A stretch of DNA of 64,000 nt from the NCBI RefSeq assembly GCF_963975005.1, contig NZ_CAXBFR010000001.1, positions 9,594-73,593 of the forward strand. The letters are read 5' to 3'. The first letter of the stretch is position 1. Every line of letters starts with the position of its first letter. This document shows, one piece after another, positions 33,831-41,435 of this stretch. The position numbers and the translations under genes were made by a program. The DNA comes from an uncultured Flavobacterium sp. (GTDB lineage: Bacteria > Bacteroidota > Bacteroidia > Flavobacteriales > Flavobacteriaceae). The notes under the pieces are model-generated. The model ran no database searches. It saw only the letters and a list, made by a program, of their open reading frames with translations, and was not told the origin of the DNA.

Positions 33831-34388
33831 ATGAATAAATTTTTTGCTTTTGTTGGATTAGCTATTTGTTTGCAATCATGTAATGAAGACGCCATTCCTA
33901 GGCCAACAAGTCAATTGCGTTTAGATTATCCTACACCTACATATATTTCAAAAGAATCAAAATATCCATTTTCTTTAGATATTAATGATTTTTCTACGAT
34001 TCTTTCAAAAGATAATGGAGCAATAGAAGTGCATTATCCAAAAATGAAAGCAACGGTTTATTTAAGTTATAAAACAGTGAATAATGATTTGGAAAAATTA
34101 TTAACTGATGCTCAAAAGCTGACATACAAATTACATGTTATGAAAGCTGACGAAATCACTGAACAGCCTTTTGTAAATCCGGATAAGAAAGTATATGGTA
34201 TGTTTTACACTGTTGGAGGTGATGCTGCATCGAATGCATTATTTTACGCTACTGACAGTACTAAAAATTTCGTTACAGGAAGTGTTTATTTTTATACTAA
34301 ACCTAATTACGATTCTATTTTACCGGCATCAAGTTATATAACAAACGACATGAAAAAGATGTTGGAATCTATTAAGTGGAAGGAGTAG
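33831..34388 (+). CDS. gldD: gliding motility lipoprotein GldD
   Basis: 185-aa lipoprotein (lipobox LQSC) immediately downstream of gldE. Confidence 0.75.
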   Translation: MNKFFAFVGLAICLQSCNEDAIPRPTSQLRLDYPTPTYISKESKYPFSLDINDFSTILSKDNGAIEVHYPKMKATVYLSYKTVNNDLEKLLTDAQKLTYKLHVMKADEITEQPFVNPDKKVYGMFYTVGGDAASNALFYATDSTKNFVTGSVYFYTKPNYDSILPASSYITNDMKKMLESIKWKE

Positions 34389-34470: not shown

Positions 34471-37152
34471 CTACAACTTATAACTAATAGTCAACATAAA
34501 AATTCTTGGTAAAATAAAAGTAGTGTTATTTGAAATTAAAAAATCTGAAAAAGAATTAGTAATAATTTTTCCATTATTCAAATAATTTTGTGCTTTTAGT
34601 TCAAAAGTAAATGGATTATCTTTTTTGTGATATAAAAGTGATGCATTTGCGACGTTAAACTTAGAATTTTGATTGTTACTGTTATTGTTAAAGGTAATTT
34701 CATAATCAGTTTTAAATGTGAAACTTTTTAAGAAATCAACATCAAAATCAAAATTGAAAGAATCTGTTTCAAAAGACGATTTTGTTAAACCACTAAACTG
34801 ACTAAAACCTTTATCATAACCAACACTTATACTTGGCCAACTTTTAGAAGCAGTTCTTATGTTTATTCCAACATTTTGATTGTTTCTGTTATTAGAAGTA
34901 AAAATTCCATTTAGATTTTGAAAATAATTAAACCAACTTAAATTTGAATTAAGTCTAGCTTTAAAACGGTAAATTTTCTTTTCCACAGAACCATTAACTC
35001 GCCAAGAAGTTTCTGGATTATCAGTTAAAATCGGTGTTGTAAATTGATTGATTCCATCTAATTCAATAGCATTTCTTGTGGTTTTTGTTTTCTTAGTATA
35101 ATTGATGTTTCCAAAAATCATAATTCCTCTATACATACTCATTTTATTGTACCTCAAACTTGCACTATGAAAACGTTCATTATTCAATAAAGCATTTCCT
35201 TTAAAAACCGAATTATAACCTTGTAAAGTATAACGTTCTACTAATTGAGAGGCTTCAGGAAAATCATTAGTTAATTTATAATTAAATTTTAAAGATTCTG
35301 AACTATTGAATTCATATTCACTATTCCATTGAGGTTCAAATAAGTTTTTATTGATGACATAATCATCTGTAATCTGTTTGGTTTTTAAATGATACGAATG
35401 CAAGTATAAACCGGGTTTATTAATCCATTTTCCTATTTTGAACTTGTATTCAAATCCTGCATAAATATCATTTAAAGTATAATTCAAATCATTACCAAAA
35501 CCATTTAAAGCAAAATCGTTTATGGAACCATTTGTAAGGAATTGTTTTTCTGAAATTTGCAAAGATGAATTTTCAATATTAGCTCCAACATTGGTGTAAA
35601 TATGATTGAAATTATTAAGAATCCAATAATGTTTTAGCAAAGCATCAACAGCATTGTTTTTTATGTTCTTAATTTGATTGATGTTGTAAAATGTATCGTT
35701 CTGTAATGGAATTAGTCCTGTTAAGAATTCAGCATCTGTTAGCCAAGTATTTTGTGGTTTGCTGTTTTCGTAAGTATGATTAACCACAAAAGTTGTAGTA
35801 TGATTTATGTTTTTGTATTGTTTGTGCCATTCGATATATTGTTTTAAACTCGAATTATCGGCTTTGTTTATGGTTTCAAAAGTTGAACTTGTATTATCTC
35901 TTACTGAATTGATGAAGCTATTGTTGTTATTATTATTGGCTTGAAATTGTACGTTATAATAGACTTTTTGCGATTTATTTGGTGTGTAGTTTAGTTTTAC
36001 ATTTCCAATGCCTAAAAGCGTTTTATTTTCACCATTTGATGTTTTATTTTCTAATGTAAAACTGCTGTTTTGTAAATATTCATTGTTAGTTATAGAAGAA
36101 CTTGCCGTGAATAATTTTGAAAATATGCCATAACTATCAACATCTAATTTTGAATTTATTTCTTGACGAAAATTCAAAGCTGCAAATTGCGATTTATTTT
36201 CAATAATGTTTTGGTTATCCATTGAAAAGGAATACAAATTAGTCAGTGATTTTCTTCCTGAAAGAAAACTACTTGCACCACCTTGAAAACGCATCAAATC
36301 TTGAAAAGAAAAAGTGCTTTTACCAATGTTATTAATATCACCAATAAAACTAACATTTGTTTTTGGACTGTAATAAAACAAAGCACTATGTAAAAGATGG
36401 TAGCCATTATCGTTACCAACTTCAGCTCCAGCATCTATATCACCAAAGAGAAATTTCTTTTTATCTTCTTTTAGTTTAACGTTCATGGCTAAATCTTCAC
36501 TATCTGATACTTGTTTTAGAAAACCAACTTCATTGAAATTATCAATGACCTCTATTTTATCTAAAGCATCAGCAGGAATATTTTCTACAGCTAACTTTGT
36601 GCCACCACCAAAAAAAGATTTGCCTTCCACAAGCATTTTGGTAACTTTTTTACCTTGCACAGTTACACCACCATCTTTGTCTACTTCTACGCCTGGCAAT
36701 TTTTCTAAAATTTCCTTCATTTTGCGTTCGTTACCTTTTGCAAAGGCTGAAACATCATAGATGAGAGTGTCTTTTTTTACAATAACGGGTTTATATTCAT
36801 AAGAAATAACAATTTCTTTGAGTTCTTCTCCTGTTTCTTGTAGAATGAAATTGTGTATTTTTAATTCACTGTTAGGTTCAATTATAAGTACTTGGTCTTT
36901 ATAACCTATATAGGAAACTTTAATTTCATATTTAACGCTACTCTCTAAAACCAATTTAAACCTACCTAAATGATCTGCAATAGCAAACTTTATCCCAGTA
37001 TTATCTTGCAGTGGTTTTGCTATAACATTGGCTCTTTCTAGCGGTTTGTTTAGAGAATCTGAAACGATGCCTGTTAGGGTTCTTTCTTGGGAGAAGGAGG
37101 AAAGAGATAATAGTATTAAAATGAAACAATTAATTTTGTTTTTTGTCTTCAA
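34471..37152 (-). CDS. large outer-membrane protein: CarboxypepD_reg-like N-terminal domain + TonB-dependent-receptor plug + beta-barrel
   Basis: Signal peptide, then ERTLTGIVSDSLNKPLERANV (carboxypeptidase-regulatory-like fold), a plug-like LEKLPGVEVDKDGGVTVQGKKVTKMLVEGKSFFGG..NIPADALDKIEVI, a long beta-strand region and a terminal aromatic (..ISYKL). Deduced start is TTG, overlapping the upstream GLPGLI gene by 23 nt. Confidence 0.8.
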   Translation of the reverse strand: MKTKNKINCFILILLSLSSFSQERTLTGIVSDSLNKPLERANVIAKPLQDNTGIKFAIADHLGRFKLVLESSVKYEIKVSYIGYKDQVLIIEPNSELKIHNFILQETGEELKEIVISYEYKPVIVKKDTLIYDVSAFAKGNERKMKEILEKLPGVEVDKDGGVTVQGKKVTKMLVEGKSFFGGGTKLAVENIPADALDKIEVIDNFNEVGFLKQVSDSEDLAMNVKLKEDKKKFLFGDIDAGAEVGNDNGYHLLHSALFYYSPKTNVSFIGDINNIGKSTFSFQDLMRFQGGASSFLSGRKSLTNLYSFSMDNQNIIENKSQFAALNFRQEINSKLDVDSYGIFSKLFTASSSITNNEYLQNSSFTLENKTSNGENKTLLGIGNVKLNYTPNKSQKVYYNVQFQANNNNNNSFINSVRDNTSSTFETINKADNSSLKQYIEWHKQYKNINHTTTFVVNHTYENSKPQNTWLTDAEFLTGLIPLQNDTFYNINQIKNIKNNAVDALLKHYWILNNFNHIYTNVGANIENSSLQISEKQFLTNGSINDFALNGFGNDLNYTLNDIYAGFEYKFKIGKWINKPGLYLHSYHLKTKQITDDYVINKNLFEPQWNSEYEFNSSESLKFNYKLTNDFPEASQLVERYTLQGYNSVFKGNALLNNERFHSASLRYNKMSMYRGIMIFGNINYTKKTKTTRNAIELDGINQFTTPILTDNPETSWRVNGSVEKKIYRFKARLNSNLSWFNYFQNLNGIFTSNNRNNQNVGINIRTASKSWPSISVGYDKGFSQFSGLTKSSFETDSFNFDFDVDFLKSFTFKTDYEITFNNNSNNQNSKFNVANASLLYHKKDNPFTFELKAQNYLNNGKIITNSFSDFLISNNTTFILPRIFMLTISYKL
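36915..37152 (-). repeat. copy A of the duplicated OMP 5' segment (copy B = 38428-38663)
   Basis: First 75 nt (36915-36989) are identical to 38428-38502. The remainder has scattered substitutions. Confidence 0.85.
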
Positions 37153-37864
37153 CTTTTGTTTTTTGCTTAAGTATTCTTTGTTTTAAAATATTTTCATACT
37201 CATTAAATTCAATTTTTTTTGTTGATTCAGGTATTTCAATATTATTTTTTTTAAATTCAATTTTTTTTACTCCATATGTAATGTTTTTATCTTGTAATTC
37301 TAAAATTAATCCAGGTAAACCGCAATAGCCATTTGGTCCAAAGCTGTAAGGAAGTTCAGGGCAAAACCAAGCGGTTACAATCCTTTTTACTTCTTTACCT
37401 TTTCTGTTTATACTTTTTAAAGTGTATTCTGATTTATAGCAAGTAAAACCATTTATAATTTTAGATTCATTATATATTAACCAATCATTATAATATTCTT
37501 TTATGACTAGAAACTCATTTTTTTTAAACATTCCATATTTATTTTCAGTAAAAAAAAATATTTTTTTTAAAAAGGAATTCATATAAATGGGATTTATATA
37601 ATTACACCAAGATAAAGCAATTTCTACATCTTTAGATTCATTTATTTCCATGAAATCTAATAATTCAAATTTAGATATTGAATCATTAAATTTTAAAGAA
37701 AAAACTAGATAATCAGAACCTTTTACAGCACTATTTAGTATTTTCTTTATTGAATTATTTTTAATTGTTGTGTCATTTTCAATTTTTATATGATAAAATA
37801 TTTCACCAGATTTTTGTGAAAAGGAATAAATGCTAAAGAATAATATAATTAAATGTTTTTTCAT
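37130..37864 (-). CDS. GLPGLI family protein (TIGR01200-type), secreted
   Basis: Signal peptide. Eponymous motif in CPELPYSFGPNGYCGLPGLILELQ. Confidence 0.85.
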   Translation of the reverse strand: MKKHLIILFFSIYSFSQKSGEIFYHIKIENDTTIKNNSIKKILNSAVKGSDYLVFSLKFNDSISKFELLDFMEINESKDVEIALSWCNYINPIYMNSFLKKIFFFTENKYGMFKKNEFLVIKEYYNDWLIYNESKIINGFTCYKSEYTLKSINRKGKEVKRIVTAWFCPELPYSFGPNGYCGLPGLILELQDKNITYGVKKIEFKKNNIEIPESTKKIEFNEYENILKQRILKQKTKVEDKKQN

Positions 37865-37918
37865 TTGTTTTTAAAATAATTAGGGTATCTGAATTACTAG
37901 ATACCCCTTAGTTAAAAT

Positions 37919-38167
37919 TTATCCACCATACATTTCATCTAAACAAGCTTCCCATGCATGATTTGCAACAGCATTAGCTTCTGCAAATGTTGCATCGTAG
38001 TAATCCATTAAAAAATCAACGTCATCGCTCCACTGATCGGTGCAAGGTGTTTCGCTTTCTTTTACTTTCTCCAATTGATTATTCAACTTCTCTTCACCAC
38101 CAGTACTTGCCATACCAGCAAAAGAGAACGCTACTAGTGCTACTGCACTAAACATAAATTTCTTCAT
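37919..38167 (-). CDS. small secreted, strongly acidic two-cysteine protein (82 aa), unknown family
   Basis: Sec signal MKKFMFSAVALVAFSFAGMA, conserved STGGEEKL, then a unique acidic region with 2 Cys. Preceded by a TAGTTTTG -7 box. A paralogue with the same leader lies at 39547-39822. Confidence 0.65.
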   Translation of the reverse strand: MKKFMFSAVALVAFSFAGMASTGGEEKLNNQLEKVKESETPCTDQWSDDVDFLMDYYDATFAEANAVANHAWEACLDEMYGG

Positions 38168-38377
38168 TTTTAAATGTTTTTAAAATTAATAATTTTTTTG
38201 ATACAAAACTATTTCTGCAGATATTTTGTAAGGCAAATATGAAAAAAAAAAACGATTTATGCAAGAGTATGTTGTGTTAATTATCGTACAAAAATGCTTT
38301 TCATCTAATTTACGGTCTAACCGTAATTTTAAAAAGGTTTTGCCGTAATTATTTGTTAATTAATTATTTGTATTATG
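38084..38377 (-). repeat. copy A of the duplicated promoter + leader + signal-peptide module (copy B = about 39739-40030)
   Basis: Manual alignment. The approximately 290 bp is near-identical apart from scattered substitutions and an A11 versus A13 tract. Confidence 0.85.
38204..38211 (-). promoter_or_regulatory. -7 box TAGTTTTG of cassette 1 (small protein / GLPGLI / OMP operon)
   Basis: Minus-strand TAnnTTTG, 37 nt before the ATG at 38167. A TTTG lies 22 nt further upstream. Confidence 0.55.
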
Positions 38378-38402
38378 TAATTACGATTTGGTTTTAAAAT
38401 TA

Positions 38403-38663
38403 TTATTGAATCTTGGCTACTAAATTTAAAACTTTAATTTCATATTTAACGCTACTCTCTAAAACCAATTTAAACCTACCTAAATGATCTGCAATAGCAA
38501 ATTTTAGTCCAGCATTGTCTTGCAAAGGCTTTGCTATAACATTGGCTCTTTCTAATGATTTGTTAAGCGTGTCTGAAACTATGCCTGTTATTGTTCTTTC
38601 TTGGGAAAAGGCGAAAAGAGTGTATAGTAATAATAATAATAAATATTTTGTTTTCTTTTTCAA
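38403..38663 (-). pseudogene. 5' fragment (86 codons) of a paralogue of the 34471-37152 outer-membrane protein gene
   Basis: Encodes signal peptide plus QERTITGIVSDTLNKSLERANVIAKPLQDNAGLKFAIADHLGRFKLVLESSVKYEIKV, then diverges and stops. Nt 38428-38502 are identical to 36915-36989 by my alignment, and the rest is roughly 85-90% identical. Confidence 0.8.
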
Positions 38664-38758
38664 ATAATTATTTTTTTTACAAATAAAAATTTATGAATCT
38701 CTGGTAAAATTATAAGCTTTTCAATATTGACTTTTTATATTATAAAAGATAATAAAAA

Positions 38759-39490
38759 TCAATTTCTCACTTTTATTAAATCGTCTTTTAACAGTTTAAA
38801 TATCTCATCTTCTGTTTTAACCTTTAATTTTGGAATTTTATTTATTTTTTCATTTGAATTCAAAATTATACTTTCTAAAGCAAAAATCACTTTTCCATTT
38901 TTTTCGTAGCCTTCAAAAACAATGCCTGGTAGGCCATAAAATTCATCTGGCCCATAACTAAACGGAAAGTCTGGACAAAACCAAGCTTCTAAACCTATAG
39001 TAGTAACTTTATCTTTGATTTTTCCATCTTTTTTATCGAATTCTAAAGTTATCCTCTTAACAGAAGAGTTTGCTTTATAGCAATTAAAATTATTTATTAA
39101 TTTTGTTTCAGATGTAATTTTCCAATCAGTAATATTTTTACCGTCTTTTATTAAAAATTTTTCACCAAAAAAATCAAATTCTTTATAGCTTCTAATTAGT
39201 GTGTCTTTTTTTTGTAGGTATCTAGTATTTCCACCTCCGTATAATATTGCTCCTTTATCAAAACTATCTTTATAGACTTTTTCCATTGAGCTAAAAAGAC
39301 TAACAGTATCATTAAAAACTAATGTATATTGAGTTTGTTGAATCGAACTCAGTAAGTTTTTAACTCTATCGATTTTTATGTCTTCTGTTTTTTCAGTACT
39401 AATTTTTTTGTAAACAAATGTATTGGTTTCGCTTTTTTGCGCACAACAAATAAAAAAATTTAATAAAAATAAACTCAAGTATTTTTTCAT
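38759..39490 (-). CDS. GLPGLI family protein, divergent paralogue
   Basis: Signal peptide. Motif region CPDFPFSYGPDEFYGLPGIVFEG. Confidence 0.8.
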   Translation of the reverse strand: MKKYLSLFLLNFFICCAQKSETNTFVYKKISTEKTEDIKIDRVKNLLSSIQQTQYTLVFNDTVSLFSSMEKVYKDSFDKGAILYGGGNTRYLQKKDTLIRSYKEFDFFGEKFLIKDGKNITDWKITSETKLINNFNCYKANSSVKRITLEFDKKDGKIKDKVTTIGLEAWFCPDFPFSYGPDEFYGLPGIVFEGYEKNGKVIFALESIILNSNEKINKIPKLKVKTEDEIFKLLKDDLIKVRN

Positions 39491-39546
39491 ATCATATTTT
39501 ATAATTTAGCAGACTTAGAAAAAAATTTATAAGTCTGCTGTTAGCT

Positions 39547-39822
39547 TTAACCTATTAGAATTACTACGTTTCCAGTTGCTCCACCATTTGCATTACATAA
39601 GTTTTCATAATACATTACTGTTGAAACAAAATCAGTTAGTGTCATAGCACCAAACGCCTCAAGTTCAATTAGTGCGTTTTGATTTCCATAATCACGACAA
39701 TTACTATGCTCTGTTAATTTAAGTGTTTCAATTAATTCTAATTTATCTTCTCCACCAGTATTAGCAATACCAGCAAAGGAGAACGCAATAAGTGCTACTG
39801 CACTAAACATAAATTTTTTCAT
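39547..39822 (-). CDS. small secreted acidic two-cysteine protein (91 aa), paralogue of 37919-38167 with unrelated mature region
   Basis: MKKFMFSAVALIAFSFAGIANTGGEDKL leader nearly identical to the first copy, with an unrelated mature part containing 2 Cys. TACTTTTG -7 box upstream. Confidence 0.65.
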   Translation of the reverse strand: MKKFMFSAVALIAFSFAGIANTGGEDKLELIETLKLTEHSNCRDYGNQNALIELEAFGAMTLTDFVSTVMYYENLCNANGGATGNVVILIG

Positions 39823-40030
39823 AATTTGATTTTTAAAATTAATAAATTTTTTGTTACAAAAGTATTTCTCGAGATATTTTGTTAGGCAAATATGAAAAAA
39901 AAAAAAACGATTTATGCAAGAGCATGTTGTGTTAATTATCGTACAAAAATGCTTTTCATCTAATTTACGGTTTAACCGTAATTCTGAAAAGGTTTTGCTG
40001 TAAGTATTTGTAAATAAATGGTTTGTAAAT
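39739..40030 (-). repeat. copy B of the duplicated promoter + leader + signal-peptide module
   Basis: See copy A. Confidence 0.85.
39857..39864 (-). promoter_or_regulatory. -7 box TACTTTTG of cassette 2
   Basis: Same position within the duplicated upstream module, 35 nt before the ATG at 39822. Confidence 0.55.
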
Positions 40031-40090
40031 GAAAAAATGAAATCCTTTTTTGGAAGAATTTATTATAAAAAATTAAGTTCTTTTGTTAAA

Positions 40091-40804
40091 CTATTCTTTG
40101 TTTTCAAATCGATCTTCCATTATTTTTTTAATTTTATTGTTGTAATCTTCATCTGTGATTACTTCTCCTTTTGTAGGAAGTTTAATGGGTTCTTCAATTT
40201 TATGATCTAATATGATTTTTTCAACTCCAAAAACATTATTTCTAACTTGTAATTCTAAAATTAAACCTGGAAGTCCTCCATAGCCAACTGGTCCAAATGA
40301 ATAGGGTAATTGTGGACAATACCAAGCCACAACAGGATGCCTCAATTCACCTTTTGAATTGATTACAATATATTCGTTTGTGGCTTTATAGCATTCATAG
40401 CCATCTATTAATTTTGATTCGTTTAAAAATTTCCAATTCATATTTAAACTATCAATAATAAGGAATTCGTTTTTTTTAAATAAACCTTCTGTATTACTTC
40501 TGTAAACCTTGTAATTATAAATATATATGTCTTCTTTACAATTGCAAAAGGCAACAGCCATATTTCTATTATTTTCTTCAGCGCTCATGGTTTCTTGCAT
40601 TTTGAATCTAGCAATAGTGTCATTAAACTCTAAATTTAATTTAATATGTTTTGCTTGTTCAATGCCTTTTTTATATAAGTCACCAAGTGTTTTGTTTTCC
40701 ATAAATTTCTTGTCCTCTAAAAGTTTAAAATTATAAACTACTAGTTTGTCTTGTGAAAAACTATTTAAAGTAATAAAGATTAAAAAAATTATTTGTTTCA
40801 TCAT
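40091..40804 (-). CDS. GLPGLI family protein, third copy (solo)
   Basis: Signal peptide and CPQLPYSFGPVGYGGLPGLILELQ. Closest to the 37130-37864 copy. Confidence 0.8.
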   Translation of the reverse strand: MMKQIIFLIFITLNSFSQDKLVVYNFKLLEDKKFMENKTLGDLYKKGIEQAKHIKLNLEFNDTIARFKMQETMSAEENNRNMAVAFCNCKEDIYIYNYKVYRSNTEGLFKKNEFLIIDSLNMNWKFLNESKLIDGYECYKATNEYIVINSKGELRHPVVAWYCPQLPYSFGPVGYGGLPGLILELQVRNNVFGVEKIILDHKIEEPIKLPTKGEVITDEDYNNKIKKIMEDRFENKE

Positions 40805-40916: not shown

Positions 40917-41297
40917 CTACGATTTCACTTTAGAAACTTTATATAAATCTCCACCAGCAACACCTTCAACGGTTTTTGTAAGTTTTTCTTGGTTTAATTT
41001 GTCAGCATCATAAGTTACTGTTGCTGTTTTTGTTTCAAAATCAACTTTTGCTTCTGTTACTCCGTCAACTTTGTTTAGTTTACTTTCAATTAAGCTAGCA
41101 CAACCAACTGCGCAAGTCATTCCTTCAATTTCGAAAGAAGCTGTTTTAGGGTTTGCAGCAATTGTTTTAGGGCTTTCTGTTGCAATAGTTTCTGTTTCTA
41201 CAACATTAGCTTCGGTTGATGTTTCTTTATCGTTTTTGCAACTAATTGTAGCTAAAGCCAAAGTTGCAACTAAAAGGGTTTGTTTTACTATTTTCAT
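40917..41297 (-). CDS. heavy-metal-associated (HMA) domain lipoprotein
   Basis: Lipobox (TISC) and the GMTCAVGC metal-binding motif in a ferredoxin-like HMA domain. Start set at MKIVKQ, because a TATCTTTG -7 box lies inside the longer track ORF. Confidence 0.8.
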   Translation of the reverse strand: MKIVKQTLLVATLALATISCKNDKETSTEANVVETETIATESPKTIAANPKTASFEIEGMTCAVGCASLIESKLNKVDGVTEAKVDFETKTATVTYDADKLNQEKLTKTVEGVAGGDLYKVSKVKS

Positions 41298-41319
41298 GAT
41301 AACTTTATAAGATGTTTTA

Positions 41320-41327
41320 CAAAGATA
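41320..41327 (-). promoter_or_regulatory. -7 box TATCTTTG upstream of the HMA lipoprotein gene
   Basis: Minus-strand TAnnTTTG, 23 nt before the ATG at 41297. Confidence 0.55.
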
Positions 41328-41435
41328 CAAATTCTGTTTTTTTTAAATGTTACAATTATCACAAACGAACTAATGTGTAATTTATATTAATATCAAAATA
41401 AAGTCGCATTTTTGCACTTTATAAATTTTAACTTA

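Follow-up and report, generated by a model that had tools for sequence, protein, structure and literature searches.

A polymorphic small-protein/GLPGLI cassette array ending in a putative TonB-type outer-membrane barrel gene in Flavobacterium

An array of genes located in a 64,000-nt stretch of DNA from an uncultured Flavobacterium sp. (contig NZ_CAXBFR010000001.1; termed the window, to whose full length all coordinates refer) was analyzed, in which genes for small signal-peptide proteins (labelled small1 and small2) and for GLPGLI proteins (labelled GLPGLI1 to GLPGLI3) are arranged upstream of a gene encoding an outer-membrane barrel protein. The locus is a polymorphic effector-partner cassette array, the parts of which are without homology to characterised toxin, immunity or secretion systems. 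GLPGLI proteins constitute a large Bacteroidota family with many paralogues per genome and were named only for their motif. Papers mentioning GLPGLI in the searched literature assign no function to the family, and literature searches revealed neither a functional study of GLPGLI nor a description of the triad composed of small protein, GLPGLI and barrel.

Among described systems, the orphan toxin-immunity arrays of polymorphic toxin systems, such as cdiA-CT/cdiI of contact-dependent growth inhibition (CDI) and Rhs, are similar in combining a conserved recombination arm with a variable cognate pair and horizontal exchange; furthermore, their displaced modules keep a fragment of the conserved gene, and solo partner genes occur. 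Unlike these systems, the window array is devoid of a large filamentous delivery protein of the CdiA, Rhs or MafB type, its conserved gene is a barrel gene downstream of the modules instead of an upstream toxin stem, each module possesses its own putative promoter and a free product of 60 amino acids (aa) predicted to be Sec-exported, and no homology exists. The blp bacteriocin-immunity region of Streptococcus pneumoniae and other class II bacteriocin loci are likewise arrays of small peptide genes, in which leader and promoter are conserved and the mature parts vary; partner genes adjoin, some partners are orphans, and the content is shuffled between strains. The window array differs from these loci by its Sec signal peptide replacing a double-glycine leader, by the lack of an ABC/C39 exporter in or beside the array, by a partner representing a soluble GLPGLI protein of 220 aa and not a membrane immunity protein, and by its diderm host, in which a barrel gene terminates the array.

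Clusters of bacteroidetocins and of class II bacteriocins or microcins encode peptides with a double-glycine leader of 15-16 aa that is cleaved by the C39-ABC exporter. Like the window mini-proteins, bacteroidetocins (class IIf; PMC6671954, PMC8546649) are Bacteroidota peptides of 35-50 aa containing at least two cysteines, and in a gene set of Flammeovirga pectinis a C-x32-C peptide is placed before GLPGLI with a CarboxypepD_reg barrel downstream. In contrast to bacteroidetocin clusters, the window harbors no double-glycine leader, C39-ABC transporter, thiol oxidoreductase or protein with five transmembrane segments (5-TM); moreover, bacteroidetocins A and B are basic whereas the window mini-proteins are acidic, and sequence similarity is not significant. 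Outward protein movement has been linked to Oar of Myxococcus xanthus, a TonB-dependent-type transporter with a CarboxypepD_reg domain that is needed for secretion of PopC (PMC6434023), which indicates that a barrel of such type can be needed for export. Oar, however, belongs to another barrel subfamily, PopC is a large protease, neither a GLPGLI-like partner nor cassettes are present, and export by the window barrel is putative. Tight coupling of a barrel gene to a partner, sometimes a small secreted protein, is also a feature of SusC/SusD, HmuY/HmuR and HasA/HasR, and the N-terminal domain of the window barrel resembles the N-terminal extension (NTE) of SusC. Unlike the partners in these systems, GLPGLI is not a lipoprotein and lacks the SusD, HmuY or HasA fold, and the window partners are hypervariable and exchanged as cassettes. 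The N-terminal domain of PNGase F-II, which is fused to a glycosidase, is the only solved structure with the GLPGLI fold; to our knowledge, no role has been assigned to this domain.

All seven array genes were recovered in the list of open reading frames (ORFs), on the minus strand and exactly where the initial annotation had placed them, including the TTG start of the barrel gene and its 23-nt overlap with the GLPGLI1 stop region. Modules follow the order promoter-like site, small gene, stem-loop and GLPGLI gene. In module 1, small1 (37919-38167), encoding an 82-aa precursor composed of a signal peptide, a charged linker and a predicted helix-turn-helix with Cys42 and Cys75, is followed by its partner GLPGLI1 (37130-37864), the Sec-type signal peptide of which ends in SFSQ, and by the full-length barrel gene (34471-37152; 893 aa). 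Module 2 comprises small2 (39547-39822; 91-aa precursor with the same signal peptide and a hairpin with Cys42 and Cys76), its partner GLPGLI2 (38759-39490) and a 5' remnant of a paralogous barrel gene (38403-38663). The remnant of 86 codons, already recognized in the initial annotation, matches barrel residues 22-79 with 91% aa identity and abruptly loses similarity thereafter. A solo gene, GLPGLI3 (40091-40804, minus strand), has no small gene or 5' arm upstream, and a small-gene remnant was not found there either; its orthologue occupies the matching position in the related genome L002 described below.

Conserved arms enclose the variable genes. Two copies of the 5' arm, consisting of the upstream region, a promoter-like site, the 5' untranslated region and signal-peptide codons, are located at 38085-38372 and 39740-40027 (both minus strand) and show 88% identity over 288-290 nt with a longest exact run of 48 nt. 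The 3' arm is represented by copy 1 at 36906-37164, spanning the GLPGLI1 end and the first ~80 barrel codons (direct repeat D1), and by copy 2 in the barrel remnant region (38420-38678, aligned over 38429-38676; both minus strand), with 84% identity over ~250 nt. These arms correspond to those described in the initial annotation, including the length of ~290 nt for the 5' arm, except that the perfect run in the 3' arm amounts to 73 nt (36915-36987) and not to 75 nt. Similarity of the 3' arm copies ends abruptly, the remnant diverges at this position, and a stop codon follows soon after. Further arm copies were not detected elsewhere in the window. GLPGLI proteins encoded between the arms are just 33-37% identical (33% for GLPGLI2 versus GLPGLI1).

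Exchange of cassettes became apparent from comparison with L002, a metagenome-assembled genome of a related Flavobacterium, which has both flanks (84-89% nt identity) and module 1 in common with the window, while ~3.8 kb of other modules including three arm copies replaces the window's module 2. Sliding identity between the window and L002 is in the range of 81-90%, except for one block (38190-37070) showing 97-100%. This block (37070-38190, minus strand) extends from the small1 signal-peptide codons to the barrel gene start, has its edges in the two arms, and represents a recently exchanged small1-GLPGLI1 cassette. Synonymous divergence (dS) between window and L002 was 0.031 for small1, 0.034 for GLPGLI1 and 0.93 for the barrel gene; the low values of the cassette relative to the barrel argue for recent transfer rather than constraint. 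The reverse pattern, namely nearly identical barrels (dS 0.085) combined with old cassette alleles (dS 1.2-3.2), was also observed. Furthermore, barrels sharing 94-98% identity sit behind small-GLPGLI pairs with identities of ~35%, and in one case the module surpasses its barrel in conservation.

In total, 27 loci, all belonging to Flavobacterium, were obtained in a census covering one genome per species. An intact GLPGLI gene follows within 19-92 bp in the case of 40 out of 42 small genes, the remaining two being located at contig ends. Arrays carry one to four modules, and 22 of the 24 testable arrays finish in a single full barrel gene (~886 aa). Moreover, 11 barrel 5' remnants (41-143 aa) with differing end points were found after internal modules in many species, and GLPGLI genes without a small gene are often located upstream in the arrays. 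Since the layout recurs in 27 independent genome loci, it is far beyond chance. Synteny of small ORF, GLPGLI and barrel genes across genomes, which the initial annotation had left to be verified, therefore holds, and the cassette system proposed therein (conserved arms, a swappable pair and an orphan copy) is borne out by this synteny, the L002 block and the dS values: internal modules differ between the relatives, and the small1-GLPGLI1 block was exchanged between the arms. The variable pair lies between recombination arms, and displaced orphan modules are present, as is characteristic of polymorphic cassettes.

The similarity matrix of the small proteins is correlated with that of their GLPGLI partners (Mantel r 0.42, p 2e-4). 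More informative is the net charge, for which the mature small protein and its own GLPGLI show an anticorrelation (rho -0.53, p 5e-4, n=38), and the window pairs show values of -12 for small1 with +7 for GLPGLI1 and of -7 for small2 with +5 for GLPGLI2. Co-variation of the pair, as initially claimed, is thus significant and supported by charge complementarity, but its effect is modest and phylogeny contributes to it. Dependence within the pair is one-way: no intact small gene was found to lack an intact GLPGLI gene, while small-gene pseudogenes precede at least four intact GLPGLI genes and ~25 GLPGLI genes are devoid of any small gene. Some of the solo GLPGLIs are 75-89% identical to paired GLPGLIs elsewhere. 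The small gene appears to need GLPGLI, and GLPGLI appears to be worth keeping alone.

The mature small proteins had been regarded as unrelated in the initial annotation. This assessment has to be revised, since Cys42 and Cys75/76 occur in both proteins and both are members of a single family, in which two cysteines are invariant. A profile search identified 205 relatives, and a full HMMER scan of 1.84 billion representatives resulted in 608 clusters at 50% identity. The small proteins are not covered by any Pfam or NCBIfam model, exact database look-up of the small1 protein returned no record, and PDB sequence searches yielded nothing useful. The family alignment features a near-invariant signal peptide (MKKxxFSAVALVAFSFAGMAN), a charged linker and a hypervariable stretch of ~40 aa, in which the invariant cysteines are 31-36 residues apart; beyond these cysteines, no conserved metal-binding motif was found in the alignment. 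The N-terminus represents a hydrophobic Sec-type signal peptide and not a double-glycine leader, while the small mature peptide with at least two cysteines corresponds to the class II bacteriocin type. The proteins are strongly acidic (median pI 4.7). In the AlphaFold2 model of small1, helices were predicted for residues 41-57 and 61-80 with pLDDT values above 90, and the domain presumably forms a helix-turn-helix closed by a disulfide. No meaningful PDB match was obtained for this model by Foldseek, which is not surprising for a helical hairpin. The small proteins make up an unannotated family of helical mini-proteins with a predicted disulfide closure, comprising 600 or more sequence types, and its members are candidate narrow-spectrum antimicrobials or candidate tags for strain recognition in aquatic Flavobacteriia.

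Within a hairpin subfamily, a conserved C-terminal tail of the type C-x3-5-GG-x2-4-G-x-(V/I)4 was noticed (P0013, P0030, P0045, P0052, P0107 and the small2 C-terminus at 39547-39600, where it reads GGxxGxVVIL). This tail resembles a short beta strand and could add onto a beta sheet of a partner. In protein P0386 (1020 aa), eleven matches to the profile's linker part were counted, which probably reflect a charged low-complexity repeat and no true relationship.

All three GLPGLI proteins postulated in the initial annotation, including the solo copy, exceed the TIGR01200 cutoff of 50 bits (110 for GLPGLI1, 113 for GLPGLI2 and 126 for GLPGLI3) and reach 44-53 bits for PF09697 (Porph_ging; cutoff 25); PF22252 was matched weakly. 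The GLPGL/GLPGI motif is visible in their alignment. The AlphaFold2 model of GLPGLI1 (pLDDT 92) was matched by Foldseek to the N-terminal bowl domain of PNGase F-II (PDB 4r4z; E 2e-5, probability 1.0, 225 columns, identity 12%), which is the sole clear structural relative; an RseB/LolA-like match was weak. Neither PDB sequence searches with GLPGLI nor a Foldseek comparison of the model with viral structures yielded anything useful, and a catalytic-type fold match was not found by Foldseek. As judged from the model, the fold is of a binding type and not that of an enzyme.

The barrel protein consists of a signal peptide, a CarboxypepD_reg (SusC-NTE-like) domain, a plug-like segment and a presumed barrel of ~650 aa. 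Its initial description as a CarboxypepD_reg, plug and barrel protein is supported for the CarboxypepD_reg domain (PF13715; 36.1 bits versus a cutoff of 32.2), which was matched by all 14 homologues, whereas the plug (PF07715) remained below threshold (16.8 bits versus 23.9; sub-threshold matches in 10/14 homologues, best E 0.0024) and PF14905 was not matched directly by the window barrel. The protein aligns by BLASTP over its full length with a Confluentibacter barrel that has PF14905 on record (L029:6882-9608; 32% identity, E 4e-116). Furthermore, the N-domain profile matches the NTE of a SusC homologue (9hfj); PDB sequence searches with the barrel gave nothing useful apart from this domain. 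A candidate TonB box segment, LKEIVISYEYKP, was read by eye after the N-domain.

A promoter-like site of the Bacteroidota type (38234-38264, minus strand) is composed of TTG (38262-38264), a T-rich spacer of 20 nt and cATATTTG (38234-38241). Compared with the published Bacteroidota promoter consensus TTG...TAnnTTTG, the site may act as a promoter. A sigma-70 promoter scan was uninformative, as the window performed no better than shuffles. Upstream of the promoter-like site, the palindrome TTACGGTTAGACCGTAA (38310-38326) may represent a regulator site; it is conserved in L002 and in 5' arm copy 2, which contains TTACGGTTAAACCGTAA at 39965-39981. Accordingly, a 17-nt palindrome, TTACGGTTA(G/A)ACCGTAA, is present upstream of each promoter-like site of the window (38310-38326, 39965-39981). 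In other species, a TTGG-N4-CCAA palindrome is located between the -7-like box and the start codon (L004, L006, L010, L014, L017, L021, L022). Both palindrome types look like operator sites for some regulator.

The spacers between small and GLPGLI genes contain stem-loops (minus strand), located in the window at 37882-37907 between small1 and GLPGLI1 (flagged as terminator-like; spacer -13.1 kcal/mol, z -3.6) and at 39508-39539 between small2 and GLPGLI2 (spacer -15.5 kcal/mol, z -3.7). Across loci, a strong stem-loop was predicted for 35 of 36 such spacers (median z -4.5), the structure being kept and the sequence not; an Rfam search found nothing. Since the spacers are too short for a promoter, expression of GLPGLI and barrel genes should rely on read-through, and the small protein should therefore be made in excess.

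Metagenomes were scanned using the GLPGLI alignment A6, as the broader alignment A8 was too diverse, and a set of 79 GLPGLI loci was obtained. A barrel homologue is located directly downstream of GLPGLI in 44 of 51 testable runs, and a short signal-peptide ORF upstream in at least 30 of 61 cases. Most of these ORFs encode a signal peptide, of several families, and C-x(26-36)-C; two further classes comprise proteins with two cysteines, beta-rich by eye, and proteins of ~115 aa without cysteines. The triad also occurs in Tenacibaculum, Pontimicrobium, Polaribacter and Flammeovirga, and for the small protein of Polaribacter the similarity to the hairpin profile is significant (p ~0.003). These results tie the GLPGLI family to two fixed partners, namely the TonB-type barrel encoded downstream and the hypervariable exported mini-protein that many lineages encode upstream.

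The second class of upstream proteins possesses a different conserved signal peptide and a variable part of ~90 aa that contains C-x(27-31)-C and looks rich in beta structure (L005 1527-6754, L027 13825-18482, L030 5541-9432, L117 2525-8642); divergent GLPGLI/barrel paralogues adjoin, and one Flavobacterium plasmid encodes four paralogues. Members of the third class, i.e., signal-peptide proteins of ~110-125 aa without cysteines (L031 3799-4137, L096 5217-5588, L099 3188-3550, and L077 5280-5864 with 194 aa), precede longer GLPGLI proteins (~280 aa) and barrels of ~905-919 aa, of which the L031 barrel has PF14905 on record.

On the Flammeovirga pectinis plasmid NZ_CP034564.1 (L114 1151-10342; L115), genes for a 5-TM protein, a redoxin, a C39-ABC transporter and a 51-aa double-glycine-leader peptide were found, which is the exact four-gene set of bacteroidetocin clusters (PMC6671954). 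The peptide gene directly precedes GLPGLI, and its mature product shows the spacing C-x32-C; LanC-like, glycosyltransferase and CarboxypepD_reg barrel genes follow downstream. Further on, the plasmid carries an SdpA-family antimicrobial-peptide gene.

Hypervariability, cassette transfer, orphan modules with remnants, retained solo partners and one-way dependence are the signature of a conflict or recognition system. The initial annotation had left undecided whether the locus is toxin/immunity-like or a transporter accessory set; asymmetric decay, persistent solo GLPGLI genes and one bacteroidetocin-type cluster make the evidence lean towards the former. It is tentatively proposed, with confidence falling slightly short of even, that the locus encodes polymorphic bacteriocin-like mini-proteins, cognate periplasmic GLPGLI binders acting in immunity or as carriers, and a shared TonB-type barrel as conduit. 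Within this proposal, toxicity, binding, cleavage site, disulfide, promoter, attenuation, TonB dependence and transport direction are inferred. Each cassette would possess its own promoter and deliver an excess of a Sec-exported precursor giving rise to an acidic helix-turn-helix of ~40 aa with one disulfide, and the stem-loop after the small gene would lower read-through into GLPGLI. The GLPGLI protein, Sec-exported and folded as a bowl-shaped beta-sheet, would bind its own mini-protein in the periplasm by a variable surface, serving as immunity protein, carrier or both, and its conserved motif would dock on the barrel. One TonB-dependent-type barrel with CarboxypepD_reg domain would serve all cassettes across the outer membrane, presumably for export from the producer, and entry into targets via the same highly conserved barrel may also occur. 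New cassettes would arrive by homologous recombination via the promoter/signal-peptide arm and the barrel 5' arm, displaced cassettes would remain upstream with a barrel remnant, and solo GLPGLIs would represent retained orphan binders. This would provide the uncharacterised GLPGLI family with a first testable role, most likely in bacteriocin-like competition, and would make the function of GLPGLI, the purpose of PF14905 CarboxypepD_reg barrels and the passage of Sec- or ABC-exported peptides across the Bacteroidota outer membrane accessible to testing.

Several observations weigh against the proposed bacteriocin-like function. The mini-proteins are strongly acidic, unlike most pore-forming bacteriocins; a surplus of small protein relative to GLPGLI would suit a recycling carrier better than 1:1 immunity; and families serving immunity alone do not usually keep a strongly conserved motif. 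Similarity of small proteins also correlates with that of barrels (rho 0.30), so that phylogeny confounds the co-variation of small proteins and GLPGLI. GLPGLI-barrel pairs without a small gene exist in Confluentibacter and Parabacteroides and imply a function of the pair that is independent of the small protein. Characterised barrels of this kind are importers, e.g., Fjoh_0545, which is induced by starvation for phosphate (PMC8115612). Finally, the link to bacteroidetocins consists of one locus among ~115: C39-ABC, LanC, redoxin and 5-TM genes were found in none of these GLPGLI loci beyond the Flammeovirga plasmid, and the similarity of its double-glycine-leader peptide to the hairpin profile was not significant (p ~0.08). 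As protein excess, the conserved motif and pairs without a small gene fit a carrier at least equally well, a dual role in immunity and transport is proposed for GLPGLI. A broader and less probable version holds that, throughout Bacteroidota, GLPGLI together with PF14905-type CarboxypepD_reg barrels provides small Sec-delivered proteins and peptides with a two-part route of export across the outer membrane, the hairpins being a Sec-dependent bacteriocin class with GLPGLI as immunity factor and carrier. For bacteroidetocins, outer-membrane passage and immunity are both unsolved (PMC6671954), and this version, if true, would account for both in the case of bacteroidetocin-like peptides.

Alternatively, the mini-protein could be a pherotype or kin-recognition signal re-entering via the TonB-type barrel and captured by a cognate periplasmic GLPGLI receptor, solo GLPGLIs eavesdropping on other strains. 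This is unlikely, even though conserved leader, hypervariable mature part, co-varying partner and conserved flanks resemble agr/com loci, import is the known direction for such barrels, regulators (receiver-domain, two-component, LytTR) are encoded beside some loci and a conserved palindrome lies upstream of each promoter-like site: no transducer or regulator is located in or beside the window array or conserved across loci, the route out of the cell is left unexplained, and up to four signals per genome as well as pseudogenised signals beside intact receptors fit conflict better. A comparably small probability is given to chaperone-usher-like assembly, with the mini-protein as an abundant surface or fibre subunit, GLPGLI as chaperone, the barrel as usher, and phages or grazers driving variation. 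The fimA-fimC-fimD and pap operons have the same order with a hairpin after the subunit gene, and the array likewise encodes subunit, a periplasmic beta protein of ~230 aa and a plugged barrel of ~890 aa with a hairpin in between; the conserved motif could dock on the barrel while the variable face holds the subunit, an excess of which fits a recycling chaperone. However, searches against Pfam, NCBIfam and PDB revealed no homology to PF00577 ushers or PF00345 PapD-like proteins, it is not evident how a closed helical hairpin of 40 aa should polymerise, chaperone-usher systems do not employ a separate chaperone for each subunit, and intact solo chaperones beside decayed subunits are unexpected.

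Nutrient capture, in which the mini-protein would be a secreted hemophore- or metallophore-like scavenger re-imported by the barrel, with GLPGLI as periplasmic or lid partner, is rather improbable: a scavenger should be conserved, yet the ligand-facing domain is hypervariable (608 clusters), moves horizontally as a cassette, exists in several versions per genome and shows no metal-binding motif beyond the two cysteines. Speaking for it, Bacteroidota commonly possess TonB-dependent barrels adjoined by a binding protein, the mini-proteins combine acidity with cysteines, GLPGLI-barrel pairs exist without small genes, a PF14905 barrel is induced by phosphate starvation (PMC8115612), and Riemerella PhoP was reported to bind upstream of, and directly regulate, five GLPGLI genes (PMC9603813). 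Roles could also be reversed, GLPGLI being the exported effector and the small acidic protein acting against it in the periplasm, as inhibitor or immunity protein. Being small, acidic, helical and made in excess is typical for immunity proteins or inhibitors, and in PNGase F-II the GLPGLI-fold domain is fused to a secreted enzyme, but the chance of this is very slight, given the ~25 intact GLPGLI genes without a small gene and at least four behind decayed ones, as an unguarded toxin should not persist, and given the missing catalytic-type fold match. Ordinary decay of a tandemly duplicated small-GLPGLI-barrel operon without any cassette function is hardly credible. Subsequent deletion of most of the upstream barrel would yield the window layout; arms of 84-88% identity enclosing genes of ~33%, recurrence of the layout in many species with different remnant end points, and near-identity limited to the cassette in L002 indicate exchange rather than decay.

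Regarding the genomic context, the window array is flanked downstream by gldD (33831-34388) and upstream by a gene for an HMA-domain protein with a lipoprotein-like signal (40917-41330), neither of which is conserved beside the arrays of other clades. PADLOC anti-phage defence models gave 0 matches among six proteins searched. In one clade, the array occupies a fixed site between EF-G, S41 peptidase and OmpA genes on one side and DUF4837, SLT-LysM and PGK genes on the other; such housekeeping flanks, differing between clades, indicate that the array is a chromosomal hot spot. A mobile element or defence island was rejected based on these housekeeping flanks, L001 being an exception.

Regulatory genes were noticed in the vicinity of several arrays. 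In one Flavobacterium clade, the array is directly preceded by a gene for a 218-aa receiver-domain protein (L016 9211-9864; also L007, L014, L017); a histidine kinase and response regulator are encoded in Pontimicrobium (L031 1473-3679) and Parabacteroides (L112 2310-4405), and a LytTR gene is located near the Tenacibaculum locus (L030 3493-4332). The F. tibetense genome carries a complete array including the barrel on scaffold 1 (L010) and a second small-GLPGLI array without an adjoining barrel on scaffold 4 (L017 7845-11997). Split or truncated terminal barrel or GLPGLI genes (L013 1051-3714, L019 9893-11716, L005 12606-13318, L024 7787-8490) are probable pseudogenes or assembly errors. In Flavobacterium sp. 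HNIBRBA15423 (L001 230-9453 and 16239-20242), the array adjoins restriction-modification and IS genes: a type I restriction-modification system with four HsdS fragments and an integrase in a shufflon-like layout is located on one side, and IS110, MobC and AbiEii genes on the other.

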